A stretch of DNA of 64,000 bases from a phage. Below are positions 30 through 26,084 of this stretch, piece by piece. Numbering within the stretch: position 1 is the stretch's first letter; every line of letters begins with the position of its first letter. The notes under the pieces were generated by a model. It ran no database searches. It worked only from the letters and a program-made list of their open reading frames with translations, and had not been told where the DNA came from. A program made the position numbers and the translations under genes. The stretch is from sequence record NC_104726.1; one strand, 5' to 3'.

Positions 30-608
30 TCAGCGTTCATAGTAAATCTTATTTAACATTACCTCATCCTTTGCAGAAAGGATATCAAGATATGCATCAC
101 CAAATCTTCCTGCAACAACCTCTGCATGATACATCACTTCGTTAACATCGTCAAGAGTGATAACCGGATGACCATATCTTTCTGAATATTGTCTCAGGGT
201 GCGATGTAACGAGTCGTCATCATATGCAGACTTTTTAATATCACAAACACGACGAATAGCCTTGATGTCGAAAAAACCTGTGCGATACCACCCAAGAAAA
301 AGGTTTCGTGCAGTGTCAACATCTACATTGATACCATCAAGAACCTTATCTACAAGATAGCTGTCATCCTTTGGACCAGCGTCCTTAGTGCGAATGTAGT
401 TGCCATCTTTTCCAGGCGACATCTCCTTCTCATCCCCAACCTGCATGCCATCATTTGGCGGTGTTAGCCACTTATCCGGATGCTTACGATCACGAGCGTT
501 AGAATGATTACGCTGGAAACCGGGCTTCCACTTGAAAGTTTTCTCCATCTGTTCTTCATTCTGATAACGTTTTGCAATCTTTTCACGGTCATCTTTGCGT
601 GAACCCAT
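30..608 (-). CDS. hypothetical protein (192 aa)
   Basis: Long ORF on minus strand; no recognisable motif. Confidence 0.5.
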   Translation of the reverse strand: MGSRKDDREKIAKRYQNEEQMEKTFKWKPGFQRNHSNARDRKHPDKWLTPPNDGMQVGDEKEMSPGKDGNYIRTKDAGPKDDSYLVDKVLDGINVDVDTARNLFLGWYRTGFFDIKAIRRVCDIKKSAYDDDSLHRTLRQYSERYGHPVITLDDVNEVMYHAEVVAGRFGDAYLDILSAKDEVMLNKIYYER

Positions 609-1111
609 AGCTGCCTCCTCTTCAAGTTATAGAAAAACTCACTGTATCGCTTTGTAACGAGCTTTTCTATCAAACTGGTGCGATTGCATTACCTGGTATA
701 GTTTATATAGTTGTGGAGCGATTTAGGGGCCTTCTTGTCAGTTTCCACACATAAACTTCATCCAAGCTCGCGCGGGAGACTCTCAACCGACTCCTTACGG
801 CGCTGGCAAGCTTTCGTCGGTGGTCCACATCAGTGCTCGGCCTTTGGCCTGCGCTATCGCTTCGCTCCCACACATGTTAACAGACCTGCATGTATGAACT
901 TCTGTTATTGTGTGCACCAAGGAGGCCCGGCATCTCGCCCCTCGTAGGCGAGTGCCAATGAAGGGCCGACACTGCCCATAGTAAGTAATAAATTTAAAAC
1001 ATGGTACTTAGGATCTAGTATATTCTACATAAGTTAAGTATATGTACTTAGTACCATAAGTACTAGATCTTTTATTTTTTATTATTTAGTTATTTTAGTT
1101 ATATTCTTTAT

Positions 1112-1220
1112 GTGTCCGTATCACGGACAGTTAGTGTCCGTATTACGGGCAGATGTGTCCGCGTGACGGACAGTAGTGTCCGTATCACGGACAGTTAATA
1201 GTATCCGTTCCATGGCGAAC
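1112..1220. repeat. tandem array of four to five 22-bp-period palindromic units (GTGTCCGT-N3-ACGGACAG); operator-like
   Basis: Read directly: gtgtccgtatcacggacag repeated at about 1112, 1134, 1156, 1177, with a degenerate copy near 1201; each unit is an inverted repeat. Confidence 0.6.
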
Positions 1221-1268
1221 ATAAAACATACGAATCCTTATAGTACAGATATTTAAGTTTTTACTGGT

Positions 1269-1619
1269 CTAACCAGTTGTTGACATCCGAATAACTTCTT
1301 CTGGTGGCAAAACTTTGGAAAATGTGCATCTTTTACCTCTCCCTTGTGTGGATGTTTCAACCACTCCTGCACATTCTAAAGTTTTAACGCACGCTGCTGC
1401 TTTTGTTTTCTTTATCCCAACATCTGCTGCAATTTTCCTTGTGCTTGGTGTGAAGCGTGAATTTCCTCCAAGCTTATACCAGTTGTGCAGGTAGCAGTAT
1501 ACGATCTTGTCATACAAGTCAAGAACAACAACCTCCCCAGTTGTGTCATTCAAAACTTTTGACATAGATAGTATTTCAAGGGGGACTTTAAGATATAGCA
1601 GCTTATCCCCATCTTTCAT
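1269..1619 (-). CDS. hypothetical protein (116 aa), possibly DNA-binding
   Basis: ORF adjacent to the palindromic repeat array; basic C-terminus; no firm motif. Confidence 0.45.
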   Translation of the reverse strand: MKDGDKLLYLKVPLEILSMSKVLNDTTGEVVVLDLYDKIVYCYLHNWYKLGGNSRFTPSTRKIAADVGIKKTKAAACVKTLECAGVVETSTQGRGKRCTFSKVLPPEEVIRMSTTG

Positions 1620-1666
1620 ATCTCCTGATTCTCCTTGTGTGGCAATTTTCTTTAAAATAGCAGGGA

Positions 1667-2221
1667 TTACTCCCTGCTGTCAATATCAAAACTCATTGCA
1701 ATACGGTATGCCTCTTCTAATTGTAAGAGTCTCCCCCACACATCCCAACCGACATCAAGCTGCCTGCCAAACAACTGTTGTGTGGTTCCGTGAGCATGAC
1801 CGAACAGTTGGACTGATCCGTGAGGCTTTCTGTTCCACTTTGCAAACTGGTAATGGCTCATACAGATCAAATTCTTGTTGTGGCGAAGCTCGTAATAATC
1901 TACAACCTCATGACCGAACTCTTTCATAATTCTGACAGTCGTCCTTGTGTCATGGTTGCCACGAACAAGAATAATATGTCCGTTCAACATATTTAGAATA
2001 TCTGGAAGTAAGTTGTTGATATTCTTATCATTAGTGCACGCAATATCTCCCAAGTGGAACACAGTGTCTGCAGGTGACACAACAGAGTTCCACTCGGCGA
2101 TGATTCCCGCATTCATACTGTCAAGATTGTGATCATACTGAGATCTGTGTTTTTGACATGAATCAAACTCCATGACCCGCTGGTGGAGAAAGTGTGTGTC
2201 GCTTGTTACAAAGTATTTCAT
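1667..2221 (-). CDS. calcineurin-like metallophosphoesterase (putative RNA 3'-phosphatase / 2',3'-cyclic phosphodiesterase)
   Basis: Motifs D-T-H (SDTHF), GD (HLGDIA), GNHD, GHAHG; start moved to the internal ATG at MKYFVTSDTHF with GAGGA Shine-Dalgarno (SD); 7-nt gap after upstream kinase gene. Confidence 0.75.
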   Translation of the reverse strand: MKYFVTSDTHFLHQRVMEFDSCQKHRSQYDHNLDSMNAGIIAEWNSVVSPADTVFHLGDIACTNDKNINNLLPDILNMLNGHIILVRGNHDTRTTVRIMKEFGHEVVDYYELRHNKNLICMSHYQFAKWNRKPHGSVQLFGHAHGTTQQLFGRQLDVGWDVWGRLLQLEEAYRIAMSFDIDSRE

Positions 2222-2228
2222 ACATTCC

Positions 2229-2639
2229 TCATTTAAGTTTAATGCAGTTTTTAAGCTGGCGTTCCATACGATCCACAACCTTGTCTGGAACATCATGAAT
2301 GCTTTTATTACCGTGGCGGTTTTCAACCACGATCACGGTATAACTATACCCATGAGTGATTGCCATGTCAACATATTCCTGCACATGTTTTTCTTTTGTA
2401 AACGTATTACTTACCACGATACGGTCGTATCCCATACGCATCATATCTTCTACGTTATCTTTGCACCATTTTGCTGCGAGTGTTACTTTACTTGCATCCC
2501 AGTTGTAATTGCCGTCATCGTCATACCAGAACATGTCGTTCTCAAAATGTGGATACAGACCCTCTAAAGATAGCGCATTTGCCAGTGTTGATTTGCCAGA
2601 CCCTGGTAGACCACGCACGATATATAGCATTTTAGACAT
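2229..2639 (-). CDS. P-loop polynucleotide 5'-kinase-like protein (T4 Pnk kinase-domain-like)
   Basis: Walker A GLPGSGKST and VVSNT motif resembling T4 Pnk IGCPGSGKST / IISDTN; start at MSKMLYIV with GGAGG SD. Confidence 0.7.
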   Translation of the reverse strand: MSKMLYIVRGLPGSGKSTLANALSLEGLYPHFENDMFWYDDDGNYNWDASKVTLAAKWCKDNVEDMMRMGYDRIVVSNTFTKEKHVQEYVDMAITHGYSYTVIVVENRHGNKSIHDVPDKVVDRMERQLKNCIKLK

Positions 2640-2739
2640 AGCGACCCTCCGTTTTAATTTCAACGGTAGTATACCTAACTGTTTTGTTAATTTCAAGTGT
2701 TGACACTAAGTTATTTGTGTGGCAGGATAGACTGACAAA

Positions 2740-3675
2740 ATGACAAATGAGGAACATATAATGAAGTATTTTAATGCAGACGACCTAGTTGACAAAGGTC
2801 TTGCAACCAGTAGGTATTACCCAGATCTCGGGTTAAAGATCTATAAATATGCTAGAAAAGTATTTTACAACAATTTATGGCATTTGTCCCCTCGTTTACT
2901 GGAGTGCCGAGGCATTGTTGTAGGTAATGAAGGAAATGTTGTGGCATGGCCCTTCACAAAAGTGTTTAACTTGGGAGAAAACTCCACCAACCTGCCTGAC
3001 AATAAGCTTGTGACTGCGGTAGAGAAAAAGAACGGATTCCTTGGTGTGGTATCATCTCATAAAGGTGACCTATTGTTCTCAACAACCGGGTCTCTTGATT
3101 CTCCATATTGTAACCTTGCAAAGGAAACCATCCAAGAGCAATGTGGTAATTTAGATCTTATCAAGAAGGTTATGGGCAATGAAAACATGACATTCATGTT
3201 TGAAATTTGTCACCCTTCAGATCCGCATATTGTTCAAGAAGACCATGGCGCATATTTGATAGGTTGCAGATATAATGATTCTGGAATAATGCTACCAGAA
3301 GCAGCTTTAGATGGGATTGCCAAATACCTTGGTGCAAAACGTCCTAACACTGTGCGTGAAATTCCGTTCAGCTATGCAAAAGAATTAGCTGCAGAAACAA
3401 GAGGTGAAGGGTATATGATTCGTAAGCCTTACTACCCTTATGATCTGCAGCTGAAGATCAAGTCTCCATACTATCTGGCACGGAAGGCAGTAATGAGGGG
3501 TAAAGCTTGGAAGATTTGGGATGATGATATCTTTAAACGTGTTGACGAAGAGTTTTACGGTATGGTAAAATTTATTCGTAGCAACTATACAGAAGATGTG
3601 TGGAATTGCTTATTAGAGCAGGAGCGTCGTGAGATACTGGACTACTATTTCCACAACGAGGACTATATGCAATGA
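2740..3675 (+). CDS. RNA ligase (covalent nucleotidyltransferase, Rnl/Trl1-like)
   Basis: Motif I K-K-N-G (EKKNGFLG, compare Trl1 KANG), motif III FMFEI, motif IV EGYMIRK, motif V LKIKS; divergent from the kinase-phosphoesterase operon. Confidence 0.7.
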   Translation: MTNEEHIMKYFNADDLVDKGLATSRYYPDLGLKIYKYARKVFYNNLWHLSPRLLECRGIVVGNEGNVVAWPFTKVFNLGENSTNLPDNKLVTAVEKKNGFLGVVSSHKGDLLFSTTGSLDSPYCNLAKETIQEQCGNLDLIKKVMGNENMTFMFEICHPSDPHIVQEDHGAYLIGCRYNDSGIMLPEAALDGIAKYLGAKRPNTVREIPFSYAKELAAETRGEGYMIRKPYYPYDLQLKIKSPYYLARKAVMRGKAWKIWDDDIFKRVDEEFYGMVKFIRSNYTEDVWNCLLEQERREILDYYFHNEDYMQ

Positions 3676-4022
3676 AGAAGTGGATTGTGTGGCTTGATGA
3701 TTTTAGAGATCCGTCAGATTATGGACTCCCAGACGCTCTGTGGCTAAAGAATTCTTCTGAGTTTATGGATTTTCTTAATGATAAGAGAAAGCTCTACAGA
3801 CGCGTATCTGAGTGGTATTTTGACAATGATCTAGGTGAAGTGCTTGAAGGGTACGACTGCTTCTCTGCGCTAGAGGAGAAACTTGTATTCGGAAAGCCAC
3901 CACTTATTGACAACGTGATTATTTTCGTGCATACTTCTAATCCATCGGCAGCTCGTAAATTTATGCTTGCTGCTGACTCATTCAAGAAGTTTGGAATAGA
4001 GATTAAACAAAACATCTACTGA
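3672..4022 (+). CDS. hypothetical protein (116 aa)
   Basis: ORF overlapping upstream stop (ATGA); between RNA ligase and Sir2 genes. Confidence 0.5.
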   Translation: MKKWIVWLDDFRDPSDYGLPDALWLKNSSEFMDFLNDKRKLYRRVSEWYFDNDLGEVLEGYDCFSALEEKLVFGKPPLIDNVIIFVHTSNPSAARKFMLAADSFKKFGIEIKQNIY

Positions 4023-4030
4023 GGACACTT

Positions 4031-4792
4031 ATGCGACGACTGATTATTATCTCCGGTGCTGGTTTGAGCGCTGAATCTGGTATTCCCACTTTCCGATCTG
4101 GTAGCACTGCAATGTGGGAGAATTTCAGCATCGATGAGGTGTGCAACATCCACACCTTTGCCAAGAATTACTATAAGGTGCATGACTTTTACAATGCACG
4201 TCGTGTAGCTCTGGGCAGTGTTGATCCTAACCTTGCACATCTTCGGATCGCTGAGTGGTATTCCCGCTGGTCTGGTCGTGTGATCAACCTTACCACCAAT
4301 GTAGATGATTTGCTGGAGCGTGCTGGTGTAAAACATGAAGATATTTTACATGTCCACGGGTATTTGCCTGAAATCACCTACGAAGATGCTGAAGGTAATG
4401 ATGTAATTAAAAATATCGGATACACGGAGGTAGATACAGGCAAGTATACCTGGGTTAAGCCCAATGTAGTGTTATTCGGTGAGGTTGCTCCTAAGTATAC
4501 AGACATGTATGACCTGTTGACATCTCTCACAAGCAATGATATGGTGATCCTAGTAGGTTGTTCTAACACAGTTATTAATTTTAACTGGGAATTGTTTCCT
4601 GCTACTTGTAAAGGCACAAAACTGCTGATTGTAAACAAGTATGACTCGCAGAGTGCAGATGGAAGTGGCATTTCACGTAGCGACCTTTATCAATATGAGG
4701 ATCGCGGGATCCCTGTATGGTTTAACGGTGCTGTTGACGCTTTCTCTGATAAAGCATTTATTGAAACTGTAGAAAACTTTATGGAACTTTAA
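4031..4792 (+). CDS. Sir2 (sirtuin) family NAD-dependent protein
   Basis: Canonical sirtuin signature GAGLSAESGIPTFR, TTNVDDL (QNID-like), catalytic HG in LHVHGYL. Confidence 0.8.
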   Translation: MRRLIIISGAGLSAESGIPTFRSGSTAMWENFSIDEVCNIHTFAKNYYKVHDFYNARRVALGSVDPNLAHLRIAEWYSRWSGRVINLTTNVDDLLERAGVKHEDILHVHGYLPEITYEDAEGNDVIKNIGYTEVDTGKYTWVKPNVVLFGEVAPKYTDMYDLLTSLTSNDMVILVGCSNTVINFNWELFPATCKGTKLLIVNKYDSQSADGSGISRSDLYQYEDRGIPVWFNGAVDAFSDKAFIETVENFMEL

Positions 4793-4805
4793 AAGGAGAC
4801 CTTTA

Positions 4806-5519
4806 ATGCTGAATACTAAACTGATCGACAACCTGGAAAAACTGTCTCAGCCTGAAAACTACCTTTGGTCTGCCAACTGGGTGGAAAACTGGAACCGTGT
4901 GGCAGCTAAAGTGAAAAAATCATACACACCATTCGAATTACAGCTTAGCTTCATTGAGGAAGAGTTCAATGAGGTTTTGGAAGAGCTGGAGAAAGGTGAT
5001 GGTGGAGATCACCTGCTAAAAGAGGCCTGCGATCTTCACGTTGTCACAAGTTATGCCGCTTATCTTGTTAATGATAATCACGAAAAGTGGTCAAACCTGT
5101 TTGATAATCCACGAGGTCTTAAGTTCAAGATCGGTGAGTTCTATGATACACTGATCGCTGCGAAAAACACATCCAAGCAAAGAGCGTCAGCTTACCGCTT
5201 AGCGGAGTTGTCAACAGCTTTGCTGTTCCAGCTTCGCGGCGATGTGTGTGGGATGATGCGGAAGGTTCTCAAATCTAATGACAGCAAGTTTGCACGGATC
5301 AACCATCTACGATATTCTCACGGTGCCAGTGCAGATATGTCTACTGAATTGCTCATAGAGTTAGAGATTGAAGATCTTGAGCGTCGTTTTGGTGGTCGCT
5401 ACGAAGGTTTCGTTGCTAAAGAGGAGTTCTACAACGGTAATAAAGTTATTATATTCCTTGACAGTAAAGGTAAGATTATGAAGCCTTCGAGCTTCAAGGA
5501 TGTAACAGAGTATATTTAA
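4806..5519 (+). CDS. hypothetical protein, possible MazG-like all-alpha NTP pyrophosphohydrolase
   Basis: Acidic EEEFNEVLEELEKGD...KEACDL pattern resembling the MazG/HisE E-x-x-E metal motif; weak. Confidence 0.45.
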   Translation: MLNTKLIDNLEKLSQPENYLWSANWVENWNRVAAKVKKSYTPFELQLSFIEEEFNEVLEELEKGDGGDHLLKEACDLHVVTSYAAYLVNDNHEKWSNLFDNPRGLKFKIGEFYDTLIAAKNTSKQRASAYRLAELSTALLFQLRGDVCGMMRKVLKSNDSKFARINHLRYSHGASADMSTELLIELEIEDLERRFGGRYEGFVAKEEFYNGNKVIIFLDSKGKIMKPSSFKDVTEYI

Positions 5520-5525
5520 CAACAT

Positions 5526-5548
5526 AGCCGGGATTACCCGGCTTTACT
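5526..5548 (+). terminator. rho-independent terminator-like hairpin
   Basis: agccggg-atta-cccggct followed by a T-run, just after the stop at 5519. Confidence 0.5.
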
Positions 5549-5581
5549 TATTATGGAAAGTATGCAGTGAGGTAGTTAGTT

Positions 5582-5890
5582 ATGTACAAGCATTCCAGAG
5601 ATCTTGAAAAAGATGCTGTGTTTGGCGACCAGATGAAGGAGCTGATCAAACTTATAGGTAGAATGGAAGATAAGTTTGACACTAAAATCTACATCGATAG
5701 CAAGATCTTCAACCACAAAATATGGACAAATGTGTGTGTTGGGCTACATGGTGATAAAGATATTGTAAATTTGGTTGTAATAAAGTTCATAGTGTGGCAG
5801 AATAGGACTATACGTTATTCCGATCCACACTTACTTGTTTATCCTATAAAAGACCTACTACAGAAGGAGGACTGCAATGCCGTTATTTAA
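5582..5890 (+). CDS. hypothetical protein (102 aa)
   Basis: ORF with upstream SD-like sequence. Confidence 0.45.
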   Translation: MYKHSRDLEKDAVFGDQMKELIKLIGRMEDKFDTKIYIDSKIFNHKIWTNVCVGLHGDKDIVNLVVIKFIVWQNRTIRYSDPHLLVYPIKDLLQKEDCNAVI

Positions 5891-6146
5891 TCTTGCTAAA
5901 CCTGTAGAAGCACACCAGTTTGATGGAAGCTCTTCATCAGTATCTGATCTGCAACGGTGGATTGATACAGGTGTGTTTACATCGTCACCTGTTCGGACCA
6001 GAGATATTCGTCGCATGTGTGAGCTTGTTGAGCCGTTTGGCAACTTGGTTTTGTACCAGGGAGATTGGTTAGTTGACTTTATGGGAGACTGGTTGGTAAT
6101 GAGTAAAGAAGAGATGTTTAAAATTTTTAAGGAAGAGGCCGAGTAA
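5877..6146 (+). CDS. hypothetical protein (89 aa)
   Basis: ORF overlapping neighbours on both sides. Confidence 0.45.
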   Translation: MPLFNLAKPVEAHQFDGSSSSVSDLQRWIDTGVFTSSPVRTRDIRRMCELVEPFGNLVLYQGDWLVDFMGDWLVMSKEEMFKIFKEEAE

Positions 6147-7429
6147 TGCATCAAATCAAAACAACACTGTACGCACTGAACAAAGATGGCAGCTACCAAC
6201 AGTGGAAAGTATTCACTGATGGCGAAAAGGTTATCGTAGAGTTTGGCAAGCTTGACGGTAAATTGCAGTACAAAGAGACGGTATGCACACCTAAAAACGT
6301 AGGTCGTGCCAACGAGACTACAGCTGAGCAACAGGCCGAGCTTGAGGCTATCAGCAAGTGGGAAAAACAAGTCCGTCTGGGGTATGTTGAAAACATGGAA
6401 GATTGCGAGCAGGGTGTTGATCTTTTACCTATGCTGGTGCATGACTACCTGAAGCGTGGCAAGGCACTTAAATTACCTTGCTGGATCTTGCGTAAGTTAG
6501 ATGGCCTTCGTCTGCTTGTTGTTTTCCAAAATGGTGAGCCTAAATTTATTTCCCGTGGTAATAAGTCCTACCCTATTCAAGGAAAGCTTTTAGAGCAACT
6601 TCGTTCTTTCCATTCTACCACTGGGATTAAACAACTTGATGGGGAACTATACATTCATGGTCTTCCTTTGCAGAAAATAGTGTCTCTTGCTAAACGGTGG
6701 CGCACACAGGAAGAGATTCAGGCCGAGATCGATAAAGACTATGAGGCAGATAAAAAACGCCGTCATGCAGCAATTAAGGCAGGCTTATCAACATACAAAA
6801 ACTTCAACAAGGTAGATATTCCTGTCGATGTTGAGCCTGTTCGTGATGATTTGCGTTACGGTGGATACTGTAGCTACGATCTGGAGTATCACATTTTTGA
6901 TATTCCTAGCGACAAGGTGTGGTGGGATCCAGAAACAGAGTCTGGACGCTGCAAGGATCTTATGGATGCAGAGGATACCGTTACCACTCTGATGCTTGAT
7001 CATATCAAGGTTGTTGACGCAGAGCTTGCGTACACAGTTGATCATTGCGAAGAATCTGTTGGTATATTCATGTCCGAAGGATATGAAGGTACTATCATGC
7101 GTAATTTCTGCGGTAAATATGAGTATGGTCAGCGAACATCTGAAGCATTGAAATGGAAAAAGTTCAACGACGCAGAGGTGAAAGTTATTGACGTTGAGAA
7201 AGATAAGAATGATGAAGGTGTTCTTATCTGTGTTGACAAGGAAGGTATTGTTGTTAAAATGAAGATGAAAGGTACGCACGAGGAGCGTAGCTATGACAGA
7301 ATGCAGGAAATGATCGGCAAGTTTGTCACCTTCAAATATCAAGCAAGGACAGAAGACAACAACTACCAATTCCCTGTCGGTATCTGCGTCCGAAATGTTA
7401 ACCCAGATACTTGGGAGGTTCTGGAATGA
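6146..7429 (+). CDS. ATP-dependent DNA ligase
   Basis: Motif I KLDGLR (KxDGxR), motif IV EGTIMR, motif V KWKK; 427 aa. Confidence 0.8.
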   Translation: MHQIKTTLYALNKDGSYQQWKVFTDGEKVIVEFGKLDGKLQYKETVCTPKNVGRANETTAEQQAELEAISKWEKQVRLGYVENMEDCEQGVDLLPMLVHDYLKRGKALKLPCWILRKLDGLRLLVVFQNGEPKFISRGNKSYPIQGKLLEQLRSFHSTTGIKQLDGELYIHGLPLQKIVSLAKRWRTQEEIQAEIDKDYEADKKRRHAAIKAGLSTYKNFNKVDIPVDVEPVRDDLRYGGYCSYDLEYHIFDIPSDKVWWDPETESGRCKDLMDAEDTVTTLMLDHIKVVDAELAYTVDHCEESVGIFMSEGYEGTIMRNFCGKYEYGQRTSEALKWKKFNDAEVKVIDVEKDKNDEGVLICVDKEGIVVKMKMKGTHEERSYDRMQEMIGKFVTFKYQARTEDNNYQFPVGICVRNVNPDTWEVLE

Positions 7430-22201: not shown

Positions 22202-22480
22202 ATGAGCTGCGAAAAATCTTTTTTCATCATCATTTACGGTAAGGATAACTGCCCACATTGTGTCAGAGCAAAAGAATTTGCAATCAGCAAAGGTCTGCCT
22301 TTTGTATATAAGACACTTGGCGAGGGCTACACAAAAGAAGAGCTTATTGAGAAGTGTAGTCCAATCGTCCCCCGAACGTTGCCGCAGATCTTCTTAGAAA
22401 GCGATCTTGACAGTATCCATATAGGCGGTGCCGACGATTTCATCTCTTTTGTTAAGAATGGTTTTGGAGAGAAAAAGTGA
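22202..22480 (+). CDS. glutaredoxin/thioredoxin-like redoxin
   Basis: CPHC active-site motif near N-terminus, 92 aa, between nrdB and nrdD. Confidence 0.7.
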   Translation: MSCEKSFFIIIYGKDNCPHCVRAKEFAISKGLPFVYKTLGEGYTKEELIEKCSPIVPRTLPQIFLESDLDSIHIGGADDFISFVKNGFGEKK

Positions 22481-23337
22481 AAGTTGTAAAACGGGACGGT
22501 AGAGAAGAGTTCTATAACGGAATTAAGGTGATCAAGGCGGCAGAGTCCGCCTTACTTGAGTCTGGACATACTGAAGAAGAAGCTTACCGGATCGCTTGTG
22601 CGGTTAATGAAGTTGTTGCTAACAATCTGCCAACCGACCAGTGCACGATCTCTGTAAAAAATATCCATATCCTTGTTGAAGATGCTCTTATGGATATGGG
22701 TTTAAAATGTGCAGCCAGAGAATACATCCAGTATAGACAGACAAGAGATAATAACAGAGAGGCAGGTGGAAAACTGCTTGCAGATATTAGTGGCTTCTTG
22801 GATCGAACTTGTGATGAATTTACAAAAGAAAACGCAAATAAGCCTACTAATCATGTACACACTCATCGCGACCTGCTTGCAGGTATTCTTAGCAAACACC
22901 TTGCATCAACACAGATCCTGCCAGACCGTGTCTCCGAAGAGCACAATAAAGGCTTCATCCATGTGCATGATCTTGACTACTTGATCAGTCCGTTAACAAA
23001 CTGTTGCTTGGTAAATTATCCAGATATGTTGGAAAACGGATTCAACATTGGTAACGCCCATGTCAGTAAGCCGAAGTCAATAGGGGTTGCAACAACAATC
23101 CTTAGCCAAATCTCTAGTGCGGTAGCTAGTGCTCAATATGGTGGTCAGACTATGAGCCATATTGATCATTATCTGGCACAGTATGCTGAAGCGACCTATG
23201 AGAAGAACCTTAAATTTTGCCAGGAACATTGGTTGCCAGATGCTGAAACTGTTGCAATGCAAATGACAGATAAAGACGTGTTTGACAGCATGCAGACGTT
23301 GCTTTATCAGATCAACACACTAACCTCGGTAAACGGT
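22477..23337 (+). CDS. nrdD: anaerobic ribonucleoside-triphosphate reductase, exon 1
   Basis: ATP-cone N-terminus; ORF ends in stop TAA at the first three intron bases; T4 NrdD-like sequence continues in exon 2. Confidence 0.85.
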
Positions 23338-23594
23338 TAACAAACTGGCCGTTTTAAAACTCTGCTAACCTTAGTATGAGGGGTCAGCTGATCGCTGGCT
23401 AACGGGGAACGCTAAGGCGAAAGCTATGCCAATCCCGTGACTAGCTTCACAAGGAGTGAGGCGGTTGTAACGACTAACCTTTTGGTGTAGGGATTATGGA
23501 AGATTCCGAAACGCAGGGGTCTGATTAAGAATCACACGGTGTGATTTCAGGCAAGAGATAGTCTGGCCTTGTGGAAACATAAGGGTGGGGACCG
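23338..23594 (+). other. group I self-splicing intron (no internal ORF) in nrdD
   Basis: Exon 1 ends in U; internal guide gccguu pairs with exon end aacggu (U-G at splice site); intron ends in G; P/Q/S-like core elements; splicing restores ...SVNG|QTPF... in frame. Confidence 0.8.
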
Positions 23595-24857
23595 CAAACC
23601 CCTTTTATCACATTAAGTTTAGGACTGGATACCTCGGTCTTTGGTAGAATGATTACCAAAAATTACTTGAAAGTCCACAAAATGGGTCTTGGTGAAGAAC
23701 GGATCACACCTGTGTTCCCTAAAGTGCTGTTCTTCCTAGAAGAGGGTGTCAACATGAACCCTGAGGATCCTAACTATGATTTGAAACGATTAGCTCTGGA
23801 ATGCTGTGCAGAACGTATCTACCCTGACTTCGTATCTGTACCACTAAATAGAAAAGTGACAGGCTCGACAGATGGCAAAGTAACGAGCATGGGTTGCCGG
23901 AGTTTTCTTAGCAAATACAGTGACTTGGAAACAGGCGAGGAGAAATATCTTGGCAGATTTAACTTAGGCGTTGTTAGCCTTAACCTACCAATGATTGCGG
24001 CAAAAGCTAAGACGGAAGGTGTTGATTTCTTTGCAGTTCTTGACGAATACTTGGATCTTGCATACGAGGCTCACCTTGTAAGGGTTAACCGTCTAAAAGG
24101 AACAAAGGCAGGGCAGAACCCCATCATGTGGTGTGAAGGAGCTCTTGCTCGCCTGGATCCTGAAGAGAGTATTGATAAACTCTTCTATGACGGGTACGCT
24201 TCCATCAGCATTGGGTATATTGGTGTGTATGAAACCTGTCAGATTTTGGGTAGAGAGGGTGACAAGGCTTTAGCTCTTGGAATCCTTCAGCACATGAGAG
24301 ATGCTTGTGAGCGATACAAGAAGGAAAGTAGACTAGCGTTTAGCTTGTACGGCACTCCTTCTGAGAGTCTATGCTATAAAGCTGCAACCTGTCTGGATCG
24401 TGAATATCCGGAAGTGTTGAAGCACGAGCATGAATATCTCACCAACAGTTTCCATCAGCCAGTATGGATCAATAGCTCTCCTTTTGATAAGTGGGAGTAT
24501 GAGGAAGGTTTTGCTATGATCTCCTCCGGTGGCAACATCGGATACGTAGAGACACCTAACCTGAAAAACAACCTTGATGCTTTAGAGGCTCTTGTTGACT
24601 TCGGGTATAAACACATTATGTATTTTGGTATTAACCAACCTGTGGATAAATGTCTCAAGTGTGGTTTCTCTGGTGAGTTCAGTGCAACAGCTAAAGGGTT
24701 CTGCTGCCCTGCGTGCGGATGCCACGATGAACAATATATCTCAGTGATCCGAAGAGTGTCTGGATACCTTTCCAGTCCTAACTCCCGTCCTTACAATAAA
24801 GGTAAGCAAGCGGAAGTTATCGAGCGAGTTAAGCACTACGGAAGTTGTGGTTGCTGA
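23595..24857 (+). CDS. nrdD: anaerobic ribonucleoside-triphosphate reductase, exon 2
   Basis: Glycyl-radical motif RRVSGYL near C-terminus; zinc site CLKCGF...CPACGC; frame continuous with exon 1 after intron removal. Confidence 0.85.
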   Translation, partial: QTPFITLSLGLDTSVFGRMITKNYLKVHKMGLGEERITPVFPKVLFFLEEGVNMNPEDPNYDLKRLALECCAERIYPDFVSVPLNRKVTGSTDGKVTSMGCRSFLSKYSDLETGEEKYLGRFNLGVVSLNLPMIAAKAKTEGVDFFAVLDEYLDLAYEAHLVRVNRLKGTKAGQNPIMWCEGALARLDPEESIDKLFYDGYASISIGYIGVYETCQILGREGDKALALGILQHMRDACERYKKESRLAFSLYGTPSESLCYKAATCLDREYPEVLKHEHEYLTNSFHQPVWINSSPFDKWEYEEGFAMISSGGNIGYVETPNLKNNLDALEALVDFGYKHIMYFGINQPVDKCLKCGFSGEFSATAKGFCCPACGCHDEQYISVIRRVSGYLSSPNSRPYNKGKQAEVIERVKHYGSCGC

Positions 24858-24923: not shown

Positions 24924-26084
24924 GTGAGAAAACTTACAACCGAAGATTTTATAGAGGGGGCGAAAGCAGTTCATGGTGATAAATATGATTATTCCAAAGT
25001 CAAATATGTGGGTGCACACACCAAGGTTGTAATTATATGCCCTGAGCATGGAGAATTTAAGAAAACTCTTGGAGATCACCTCCGTAAAAAACAGGGTTGC
25101 CCAAAATGTCAGATTGAAGCAGAAAGAGCGGCTTCTGCTGAAAAATTTAAAGCGGAGGCCGAGGCTAAGTATAATTATAAATATGATTACTCTAAGGTAG
25201 AGTATGTAAATGCTAAAACTAAAGTTGTGATTGTTTGTCCTGTTCACGGCGAGTTTGAGCAAAAGCCTGATAACCATCTCCGCGAGGGGGGTTGCCGTAA
25301 GTGTGGAGGAACTGAGAGAAAGACTACTGAAGAGTGGATCGCTGAGGCAAAAGCGCTTCATGGCGATAAGTATGATTACTCTCTTGTAAATTATAAAACC
25401 GGTAATGATAAAGTGGAGATAATCTGTAATACATGTGGTGCTCACTTCCCACAAAGACCTCATGACCATGCACCAAGTGGAAAAGGTTGCCCCGAGTGCG
25501 GGAAGAAGAAGGTGGCCGAGGTTAGTAGGAAGACGCAGAGAAAGAAAGCATCTGAGGTAGCTAAAAGGTTTGAGGCAAGAGCCAGAGCTATCCATAAAGA
25601 TAAATACGATTATTCCGGGGTGGAATATGTTAATAGGGAGACAGAGGTCACTATCATCTGTCCGATTCACGGGGAGTTCACACAAAAACCGTTTGTCCAC
25701 ATCAACCAAAAAGCTGGCTGTCAAAAATGTGCTAAAGTCGGCTTCTTATCTCATGAACATGGTAGCCTTTATATCATGGTTGACGATCTGGAAGTACCAA
25801 CTATGATGAAAATTGGTGTGAGTGTCCGGGTAGATGAACGAAGAAAAGATGTGTTAAAAAGAGCTAAAAAAGCTGGTGCTAGATTCTCTGATCTACATGT
25901 TATAAAAACTTGGGAAGGAACAACAGACGACATGCAAACTTTAGAAAAAGCTATGCACCAAGCCTTGAGCCAATACAAAATCAACTTCACAGAGAAGTTT
26001 GATGGCTGTCGAGAGTTCTTCTACTACAGACCGGAGGTATTCGAGCTAGTAGAAGAACATTTGAAGAAATTTGCTAATAAATAA
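24924..26084 (+). CDS. zinc-ribbon-repeat protein with C-terminal T5orf172/GIY-YIG-like domain (putative free-standing homing endonuclease)
   Basis: Four about 60-aa repeats of HGDKYDYSxVxY...KVxIICPxHGEF...GCPxC; C-terminal KIGVS...REFFYY; GTG start. Confidence 0.6.
   Translation: MRKLTTEDFIEGAKAVHGDKYDYSKVKYVGAHTKVVIICPEHGEFKKTLGDHLRKKQGCPKCQIEAERAASAEKFKAEAEAKYNYKYDYSKVEYVNAKTKVVIVCPVHGEFEQKPDNHLREGGCRKCGGTERKTTEEWIAEAKALHGDKYDYSLVNYKTGNDKVEIICNTCGAHFPQRPHDHAPSGKGCPECGKKKVAEVSRKTQRKKASEVAKRFEARARAIHKDKYDYSGVEYVNRETEVTIICPIHGEFTQKPFVHINQKAGCQKCAKVGFLSHEHGSLYIMVDDLEVPTMMKIGVSVRVDERRKDVLKRAKKAGARFSDLHVIKTWEGTTDDMQTLEKAMHQALSQYKINFTEKFDGCREFFYYRPEVFELVEEHLKKFANK

Follow-up and report, generated by a model that had tools for sequence, protein, structure and literature searches.

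In a window of 64,000 nucleotides of phage DNA (sequence record NC_104726.1; all positions are those of the window), three adjacent genes at positions 1667–3675 encode a small P-loop kinase, a metallophosphoesterase (MPE) and an RNA ligase. We propose, with a probability of roughly 0.7, that this locus is a phage system for repairing RNA breaks by healing and sealing, built of separate small proteins. In the proposed scheme, the kinase (136 amino acids) would phosphorylate the 5′-OH of a broken RNA, the MPE would remove a 2′,3′-cyclic phosphate or 3′-phosphate to leave a 3′-OH, and the ligase, of the Rnl1/Trl1 clade, would adenylate the 5′-phosphate and seal the break. Three further genes, encoding cREC (a cyclic-phosphate-processing receiver-like protein), a sirtuin and a MazG-like protein, would probably broaden or back up 3′-end processing in the rV5-like lineage, for instance through opening of the cyclic phosphate and NAD+-dependent removal of a 2′-phosphate. 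We infer all of the enzymatic activities, as well as tRNA as the substrate and counter-defence as the purpose, the last by analogy with T4 Pnkp/Rnl1 acting against PrrC. We favour break repair because of the structural and profile matches of the kinase, the conserved motifs, the linkage of the genes, the gene fusions, the pairing of the healing genes with a second ligase, the insertion of cREC between the ligase and kinase genes of related phages, a prediction published independently for this group of phages and, as context only, a nearby cluster of phage tRNA genes; the gene structure, the family and fold assignments, the conservation of catalytic residues, the linkage and the fusion are direct observations.

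The linkage of the three genes across phages is the strongest evidence that they form a module. We scanned IMG/VR with the ligase family, fetched 8 kb on either side of each of the 80 loci obtained, and located neighbouring genes by tblastn with the window proteins. The kinase was found in 72 and the MPE in 63 of these ligase-anchored loci. Removal of loci whose ligases were at least 85% identical left 56 non-redundant viral loci (ligases 35–89% identical), among which the kinase and the MPE were each present in 50 and all three genes in 46. The trio lay within 3 kb or less in 38 of the 56 loci, a closeness that random gene placement within the ±8 kb segments would give in about 10–15% by a rough estimate, and in 45 of its 46 loci the three genes share a strand. 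Four gene orders were seen (MPE–ligase–kinase, kinase–ligase–MPE, ligase–kinase–MPE and ligase–MPE–kinase), and in many cases the stop codon of one gene overlaps the start codon of the next. Divergent transcription of the module, as in the window, occurs in the rV5 lineage alone; in the closest outgroups, the MPE gene and a ligase–cREC–kinase–sirtuin series lie, in this order, on one strand.

In some phages, the kinase and the ligase are a single protein. Fusion open reading frames (ORFs) of 418–426 amino acids, in which an N-terminal kinase is joined to a C-terminal ligase and both sets of catalytic motifs are intact, were found in 11 loci representing two non-redundant lineages (L039, 7569–8825; L045, 610–1875; also L040, L046, L047, L050, L051, L054, L055, L057 and L058). 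Pfam sees only the kinase half of these proteins (AAA_33); the ligase half, despite sharing about 40% identity with the ligase of the window, stays below the RNA_lig_T4_1 threshold. PHROG 8238, a single 737-amino-acid profile, is matched at its N-terminus by the window kinase and at its C-terminus by the window ligase. No MPE homologue was found within 8 kb of the fusion genes. Locus L039 also encodes a second RNA ligase, of the PF09414 type, and a phosphoribosyl pyrophosphate (PRPP) synthetase. Freshwater phage contigs have the same pair, kinase then MPE with the stop codon overlapping the start codon, at a distance of 1.8 kb from another type of RNA ligase (PHA02142 OB fold and PF09414). One speculative idea, to which we give a limited chance of being right, is that the mini-kinase and this family of MPE form a portable RNA end-healing cassette that works with two or more mutually unrelated families of RNA ligase and is ligase-fused in some lineages.

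The kinase gene (2229–2639, minus strand) encodes a protein that scored 42.7 against Pfam AAA_33 (cut-off 27; 9e-11) and matched phrog_2071 (1e-57) and phrog_505, named 'polynucleotide kinase' (4.6e-10). Its family, with at least 7,990 matches, consists of stand-alone proteins of about 130 amino acids, homologues being 127–172 amino acids long except for the kinase::ligase fusions. Residues G10..G13-x-G15-K16-x-T18, D35, N78-T79, E106-N107-R108-H109 and H115 are invariant in the family. A first-pass annotation, made from the letters alone, had ascribed to this protein motifs like those of T4 Pnk, and the alignments bear this out: the P-loop, G10-L-P-G-S-G-K16-S-T18, is kept together with the Asp general base D35, for which the profile alignments give the catalytic D35 of T4 Pnk and the NRDD motif of Pnkp1 as counterparts; in these alignments, the VSNT segment falls on ISDT of T4 Pnk. 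The same annotation was right that the kinase is not fused to a HAD phosphatase. Single-sequence searches of solved structures with the kinase retrieved nothing, and a family profile was needed; the best full-length matches of the profile were Pnkp1, T4 Pnk, the tRNA kinase PSTK and CthPnk (E = 2e-4 to 1e-3), and small-molecule kinases matched at the P-loop only. The AlphaFold2 model (pLDDT 85.5) gave a similar picture in the structural comparison that the annotation had recommended. The Foldseek TMq values were 0.73–0.78 for CthPnk, 0.73–0.77 for T4 Pnk, 0.71 for Pnkp1 and 0.70 for PSTK, all with modest E-values (1e-5 to 1e-4), as against 0.45–0.60 for adenylate, shikimate, gluconate and UMP-CMP kinases. 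PADLOC returned only weak, P-loop-level matches. Judged by its profile and model, the protein is predicted to be a polynucleotide 5′-OH kinase that heals 5′ ends.

The ligase, encoded on the plus strand, scored 55.4 against Pfam RNA_lig_T4_1 (cut-off 28.3). The ORF opens at 2740, as had been annotated, and its end at 3675 stands; the likely start is the ATG at 2761, because GAGGAA lies 8 nucleotides upstream of it and homologues begin at an equivalent MKF, so that the protein most likely has 304 amino acids rather than the 311 counted from 2740. The family (412 matches) comprises proteins of about 300 amino acids on phage-sized contigs. In an alignment of 36 members, 40–49% identical to the window protein, R50-G51, K89-x-N91-G92, F147-E148, E216-G217 and K232-x-K234 are invariant, and nucleotidyltransferase motifs I (KxxG), III, IV and V are all present. 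The K-x-N-G motif I noted in the first pass is thus real, as K89-K-N91-G92 in the numbering from ATG 2761. As with the kinase, a single-sequence search of solved structures gave nothing and a family profile was required; this matched T4 Rnl1 (2e-13) solely within the adenylyltransferase domain, the alignment ending at T4 Rnl1 residue 249. The AlphaFold model has a pLDDT of 92 and ends in about 65 amino acids of helices. The protein resembles the adenylyltransferase domain of T4 Rnl1, in sequence and fold, above other ligase families, and is structurally about equidistant from T4 Rnl1 and the 2′-phosphate-dependent fungal Trl1-LIG. Identities as a DNA ligase or a capping enzyme, which the first-pass annotation had named as refuting its reading, were considered and rejected on structure. 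We therefore take the protein as an Rnl1/Trl1-clade RNA ligase, the predicted sealing enzyme of the set.

The MPE (184 amino acids; 1667–2221, minus strand) scored 29.0 against Metallophos_2 (cut-off 27) and 27.8 against Metallophos (cut-off 21.5), and matched phrog_547 at 3.6e-51. All three proteins of the trio therefore exceed their Pfam gathering thresholds in the search that had been suggested, and all three ORFs are present where they had been annotated. In an alignment of 36 MPE homologues from related loci, D8-x-H10, G58-D59, G88-N89-H90, H123 and G141-H142-x-H144 show no or almost no variation, and the binuclear-metal motifs DxH, GD, GNH(D/E), H and GHxH are all present; H13, R26, W129 and D160 are further conserved residues specific to the family. 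The MPE profile retrieved aq_1665 from Aquifex (1xm7; 1.4e-22), GpdQ (4e-4) and then 6unc and 3ck2 among PDB sequences, and no lambda phosphatase or Pnkp phosphatase chain at E up to 0.1. The description of this phosphatase as calcineurin-like, as in bacterial Pnkp, holds at the level of the superfamily, but the clade differs: by its sequence profile, the MPE belongs to the aq_1665 family, whereas the Pnkp phosphatase is lambda-phosphatase-like. The list of MPE homologues contained no informative names and no multidomain architectures, and PADLOC gave no match for the MPE, the ligase, cREC, the sirtuin or the MazG-like protein. CthPnkp and lambda phosphatase provide precedents for the healing of 2′,3′-cyclic phosphate ends by a binuclear MPE (PMC2190708, PMC3675462), and the window MPE is predicted to act as an RNA 2′,3′-cyclic phosphodiesterase/3′-phosphatase that heals 3′ ends.

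Megablast against phage records assigned positions 1200–4100 to a Vequintavirus, an rV5-like Escherichia coli myophage: this segment shares 99.8% identity with the Escherichia phages isim, nimi and CarlMeissner, and 119 phage records match it at 80% identity or more, nearly all of them at 90% or more. Eighteen matching records are titled 'Campylobacter phage', 16 of them with Campylobacter jejuni as the host, a label that looks doubtful. The three genes are already annotated in near-identical genomes in GenBank, as 'polynucleotide kinase', 'putative phosphoresterase' and 'RNA ligase' in CarlMeissner, and the ligase as 'RNA ligase 1 and tail attachment protein' in isim. The kinase and MPE genes form a two-gene minus-strand operon, as originally described, with a gap of 7 nucleotides and a Shine-Dalgarno sequence before each gene (GGAGG before the kinase ATG at 2639, GAGGA before the MPE ATG at 2221). 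The spacer between the kinase and the ligase (2640–2760) looks like a divergent control region, as it carries promoter-like sites on both strands, each a consensus match only: TTGAAA-17-TATACT on the minus strand at 2696–2668 (sigma-70-like, 10/12) and a perfect TTGACA on the plus strand at 2700–2705. While the three genes do occupy 1667–3675, the unit is larger than was first thought and extends over three overlooked plus-strand genes, for cREC (3672–4022, 116 amino acids), the sirtuin (4031–4792, 253 amino acids) and the MazG-like protein (4806–5519, 237 amino acids), the last gene of the ligase operon. The ligase stop codon overlaps the cREC start codon (ATGA, 3672–3675), and cREC is predicted to be translationally coupled to the ligase. 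A GC-rich hairpin at 5526–5543 (7-bp stem with 6 GC pairs, weak T tract), terminator-like on both strands, is the probable end of the operon. A separate, bona fide ATP-dependent DNA ligase is encoded at 6146–7429.

The additional genes were examined by the same means. cREC matched PF20274 (9.1e-14) and has a conserved receiver-like acidic pocket, with D9-D10, D13, D51-N52-D53, H87, S89-N90-P91-S92 and K96 invariant; in the nearest outgroup phages (L003, L006, L008, L010, L012 and L053), its gene lies between those of the ligase and the kinase. The sirtuin matched Pfam SIR2 (2.4e-27), and in five homologues the NAD+ motifs are intact (GAGxSxESG..FR, TNVDDL and the catalytic H109-G110 are invariant) and the small domain has no CxxC pair, that is, no zinc-binding module. 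The PADLOC models of defence Sir2 proteins did not match it, and the candidate identity of a defence-type NADase was rejected on this ground. The MazG-like protein matched phrog_671, 'nucleotide pyrophosphohydrolase' (5.7e-22), with no match in Pfam; it has been called a MazG-superfamily pyrophosphatase (PMC9503650). cREC was introduced by Iyer et al. (2021), who also mention calcineurin-like phosphatases in phage RNA repair (PMC7824862), and its function is a prediction (PMC7824862, PMC9503650). A Pfam scan of nine ORFs lying from 30 to 7429 gave no match to a 2H or KptA family.

These genes suggest a different division of labour, in which cREC would open the 2′,3′-cyclic phosphate to a 2′-phosphate, the ligase would seal the break with a 2′-phosphate left at the junction and the sirtuin would transfer this phosphate to NAD+, as in the Trl1/Tpt1 route; the kinase would still act on the 5′-OH, and the MPE and the MazG-like protein would only clear by-products derived from ADP-ribose. 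We regard this route as unlikely, while acknowledging that the near-tie of Trl1-LIG and T4 Rnl1 as structural neighbours of the ligase, the cREC–ligase overlap and the cREC position in related phages, and the possession by the sirtuin of NAD+ motifs and a catalytic His without the zinc module, unlike defence Sir2 proteins, all speak for it. It also has a published prediction on its side, in which the sirtuin acts like KptA/Tpt1 on 2′-phosphates (Iyer et al. 2022, PMC9503650). Against it, cREC, the sirtuin and the MazG-like protein were found in only 10, 11 and 13 of the 80 loci, respectively, all in the clade nearest the window, as compared with the trio in 46 of 56, so that the trio appears self-sufficient. 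cREC and the sirtuin are, moreover, separable, as the sirtuin occurs without cREC in L007, L009 and L013 and cREC without the sirtuin in L004 and L005. Nor is any sirtuin known to be a 2′-phosphotransferase. cREC, for its part, is uncharacterised (PMC9503650). As the trio is nearly universal and the added genes are clade-restricted and separable, we favour a T4-like core pathway with cREC and the sirtuin as a lineage-specific extension.

The remaining explanations question the substrate or the purpose of the enzymes. Kinase and MPE might act on something other than RNA, such as nucleotide pools, DNA ends destined for the neighbouring ATP-dependent DNA ligase, or immune signals of the cyclic-nucleotide or ADP-ribose kind, and lie beside the ligase because they share an early 'host-takeover' island. 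AAA_33 kinases and Metallophos_2 enzymes do include many small-molecule enzymes, PMC9503650 terms the kinase only a 'nucleotide kinase', and distant MPE homologues lie beside ThyX and replication genes. The trio also has recurrent NAD+ and nucleotide neighbours (PRPP synthetase in 20, DNA ligase in 20, NadV/NAMPT in 14, HD in 12 and Macro in 5 of the 56 non-redundant loci; examples are L036:9910–10797, L020:12163–13815, L020:11628–12101 and L018:6767–7210), an arrangement which suggests a shared early counter-defence island that joins RNA repair with NAD+ reconstitution. We nevertheless hold non-RNA targets to be distinctly unlikely in view of the kinase::ligase fusion proteins, the overlapping stop and start codons among the trio in many lineages and four gene orders, the higher structural rank of polynucleotide and tRNA kinases over small-molecule kinases, and the re-association of the kinase–MPE pair with a second, unrelated RNA ligase family. 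A true RNA repair set could instead serve housekeeping of the phage's own RNA, in the maturation or recycling of its tRNAs or the repair of damage by phage RNases. Near-identical phages have a tRNA cluster to the left of window position 1, some 1.3–2.1 kb outside the window (L082, 3205–4016; L001, 422–1234), with tRNAs for Pro-UGG, CAU (Met/Ile), Thr-UGU, Ser, Tyr-GUA and Arg-UCU and, between those for Thr and Ser, an atypical tRNA of 97–98 nucleotides, to which ARAGORN gives a 4-nucleotide anticodon, one record the name 'tRNA-Lys' and Rfam 35.5 bits. This proximity, and the presence of tRNA genes no more than 8 kb away in 22 of the 58 related loci examined, are what favours housekeeping; beyond providing context, however, nearby tRNA genes are too weak an indication. 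Many trio loci have no tRNA gene nearby, there are no tRNA genes and no Rfam family at its gathering score within the window, and T4 Pnkp/Rnl1, the one phage precedent understood by experiment, acts as a counter-defence against PrrC (PMC3592404); we consider this purpose very unlikely. That the ligase should mainly be a catalyst of tail-fibre attachment, like the second activity of T4 gp63, seems to us extremely improbable. The idea draws on the gp63-derived annotation in many GenBank records and on the name of phrog_562, but the adenylyltransferase catalytic residues are all invariant in homologues only 40–49% identical, the gene lies in an early/DNA-metabolism block beside the healing enzymes and away from tail genes, and the ligase is fused to the kinase in some phages.

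Several observations weigh against the break-repair reading itself, and the MPE is the weakest link of the module. Its closest solved relative, aq_1665, is a structure without an assigned function, and its clade, as described above, is not that of lambda phosphatase and Pnkp. Three distant MPE homologues (P0292, P0288 and P0307; 33–35% identical) have no kinase or ligase neighbour and adjoin ThyX, other phosphoesterases or replication genes, contexts of DNA replication or nucleotide metabolism; membership of the MPE family alone thus does not imply RNA repair. As for the kinase, the position of R38 in T4 Pnk is occupied by W38 with no Arg, although the invariant R108 of the E-N-R-H-G motif could, judging from the alignment, fill the role of T4 Pnk R126. 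The kinase family, with at least 7,990 matches, also greatly exceeds the ligase family, with 412, so that many kinases of this kind must have other partners. The ligase reached only 38.4 bits against TIGR02308, the NCBIfam equivalog of T4 RnlA, for which the cut-off is 242, and its profile search left the C-terminal domain of T4 Rnl1 unmatched. That domain confers tRNA specificity on T4 Rnl1. The ATP-dependent DNA ligase near the trio in 20 of the 56 loci makes a role in DNA-end healing conceivable, and a general early counter-defence and nucleotide island could inflate the apparent linkage; such an island cannot account for the kinase::ligase fusions or the overlapping reading frames. Finally, a literature search for experiments on the module of Vequintavirus, or on any phage metallophosphoesterase acting in RNA repair, found none. 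With these points taken into account, the polynucleotide-kinase-like fold, the trio linkage and the kinase::ligase fusions support the healing-and-sealing module proposed in the first-pass annotation.

Comparison with known systems places the locus in a class that has been described before. Iyer, Burroughs, Anantharaman and Aravind (2022, PMC9503650, section 3.7.3) defined a type-2 sirtuin-centred phage RNA-repair neighbourhood, 'Escherichia phage V5 / Proteus phage Mydo', with genes for a T4-like tRNA ligase, cREC, a kinase, a sirtuin, a MazG-superfamily protein and a calcineurin-like phosphoesterase. The phage genus is the same, and all six genes are present here, contiguously at 1667–5519. 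In that scheme, the sirtuin is central and the phosphoesterase 'occasional', whereas in our ligase-anchored census the trio is the core and the sirtuin, cREC and MazG-like genes are clade-restricted; both are in-silico predictions. In T4 Pnkp, the kinase is fused to a HAD (DxDxT) phosphatase, whereas here it stands alone and the phosphatase is a binuclear metallophosphoesterase; the short helical C-terminus of the 304-amino-acid ligase is also unlike the C-terminal domain of T4 Rnl1. Bacterial Pnkp (Pnkp-Hen1 of Clostridium thermocellum, Pnkp1-Rnl-Hen1 of Capnocytophaga) combines the same predicted chemistries, kinase, binuclear MPE and ligase, and the CthPnkp kinase domain is the top structural match of the window kinase (TMq up to 0.78), but Pnkp is one polypeptide, while the phage has three separate genes and no Hen1 partner. 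Unlike fungal and plant Trl1 with Tpt1, the locus has neither a 2H cyclic phosphodiesterase nor Tpt1/KptA, cREC and the sirtuin being the proposed stand-ins, and the phage fusions have the order kinase–ligase, in contrast to the ligase–kinase–cyclic phosphodiesterase order of Trl1.

Other features lie at the edges of the locus and elsewhere in the window. A helix-turn-helix (HTH) protein (DUF6945 and HTH_36 in Pfam) is encoded on the minus strand at 1269–1619, 47 nucleotides downstream of the MPE gene, with a promoter-like site of its own at 1683–1654. It is possibly co-transcribed with the MPE gene, but its membership of the module is doubtful; in the related-locus census, it accompanies the module only in the closest relative. 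Positions 1112–1197 hold four tandem copies, spaced by 21–22 nucleotides, of the palindromic unit GTGTCCGTATCACGGACA, in an ORF-poor gap of 660 nucleotides between the HTH gene and a minus-strand gene at 30–608. Phage isim annotates these repeats solely as 'repeat_region', and one record names the HTH protein a replication initiation protein. From their sequence, the repeats look like an operator or iteron array, which possibly serves the adjacent HTH protein. Farther away, the nrdD gene (anaerobic ribonucleotide reductase) is split into ORFs at 22477–23340 and 23649–24857, corresponding to NRDD profile positions 1–154 and 180–562, and a full-length, sub-threshold group I intron match (RF00028, 29.8 bits, E = 1e-5) is present at 23328–23584, in parallel with the nrdD (sunY) intron of T4. 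In phage isim, the nrdD gap contains an HNH homing endonuclease ORF, whereas here the gap is only 308 nucleotides long, so that the intron appears to be without its endonuclease. Just after nrdD, a 386-amino-acid ORF (24924–26084) with DUF723, treble-clef zinc finger and T5orf172/MUG113 (GIY-YIG-like) domains probably encodes a free-standing homing endonuclease.

Defences that cleave tRNA or other RNA (PrrC, RloC, PARIS, retron-associated PtuAB and toxin RNases) form one of the main branches of bacterial immunity, and to our knowledge T4 Pnkp/Rnl1 is essentially the sole phage repair response understood experimentally. The cluster described here would be a widespread alternative build of the T4 repair idea from unfused parts. 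Because it belongs to a published predicted class from the same phage group, we regard it as already known: the neighbourhood was predicted in 2022 (PMC9503650) and the three genes are named in GenBank. At stake are the functions of the mini-kinase, the aq_1665-type phosphoesterase and cREC, each from an enzyme family yet to be characterised, and the question of whether a sirtuin can replace Tpt1. Should the cassette idea be true, the aq_1665 family would represent a new class of RNA 2′,3′-end phosphoesterase; likewise, if true, cREC and the zinc-less sirtuin of rV5-like phages would supply a new NAD+-dependent means of 2′-phosphate removal, with the sirtuin as a Tpt1 analogue. The host phages are easy to handle, CarlMeissner (Bas48) of the BASEL collection being an example, and the residual value of the locus is that of a tractable test bed for these three enzyme families and for the idea of a sirtuin acting as Tpt1.

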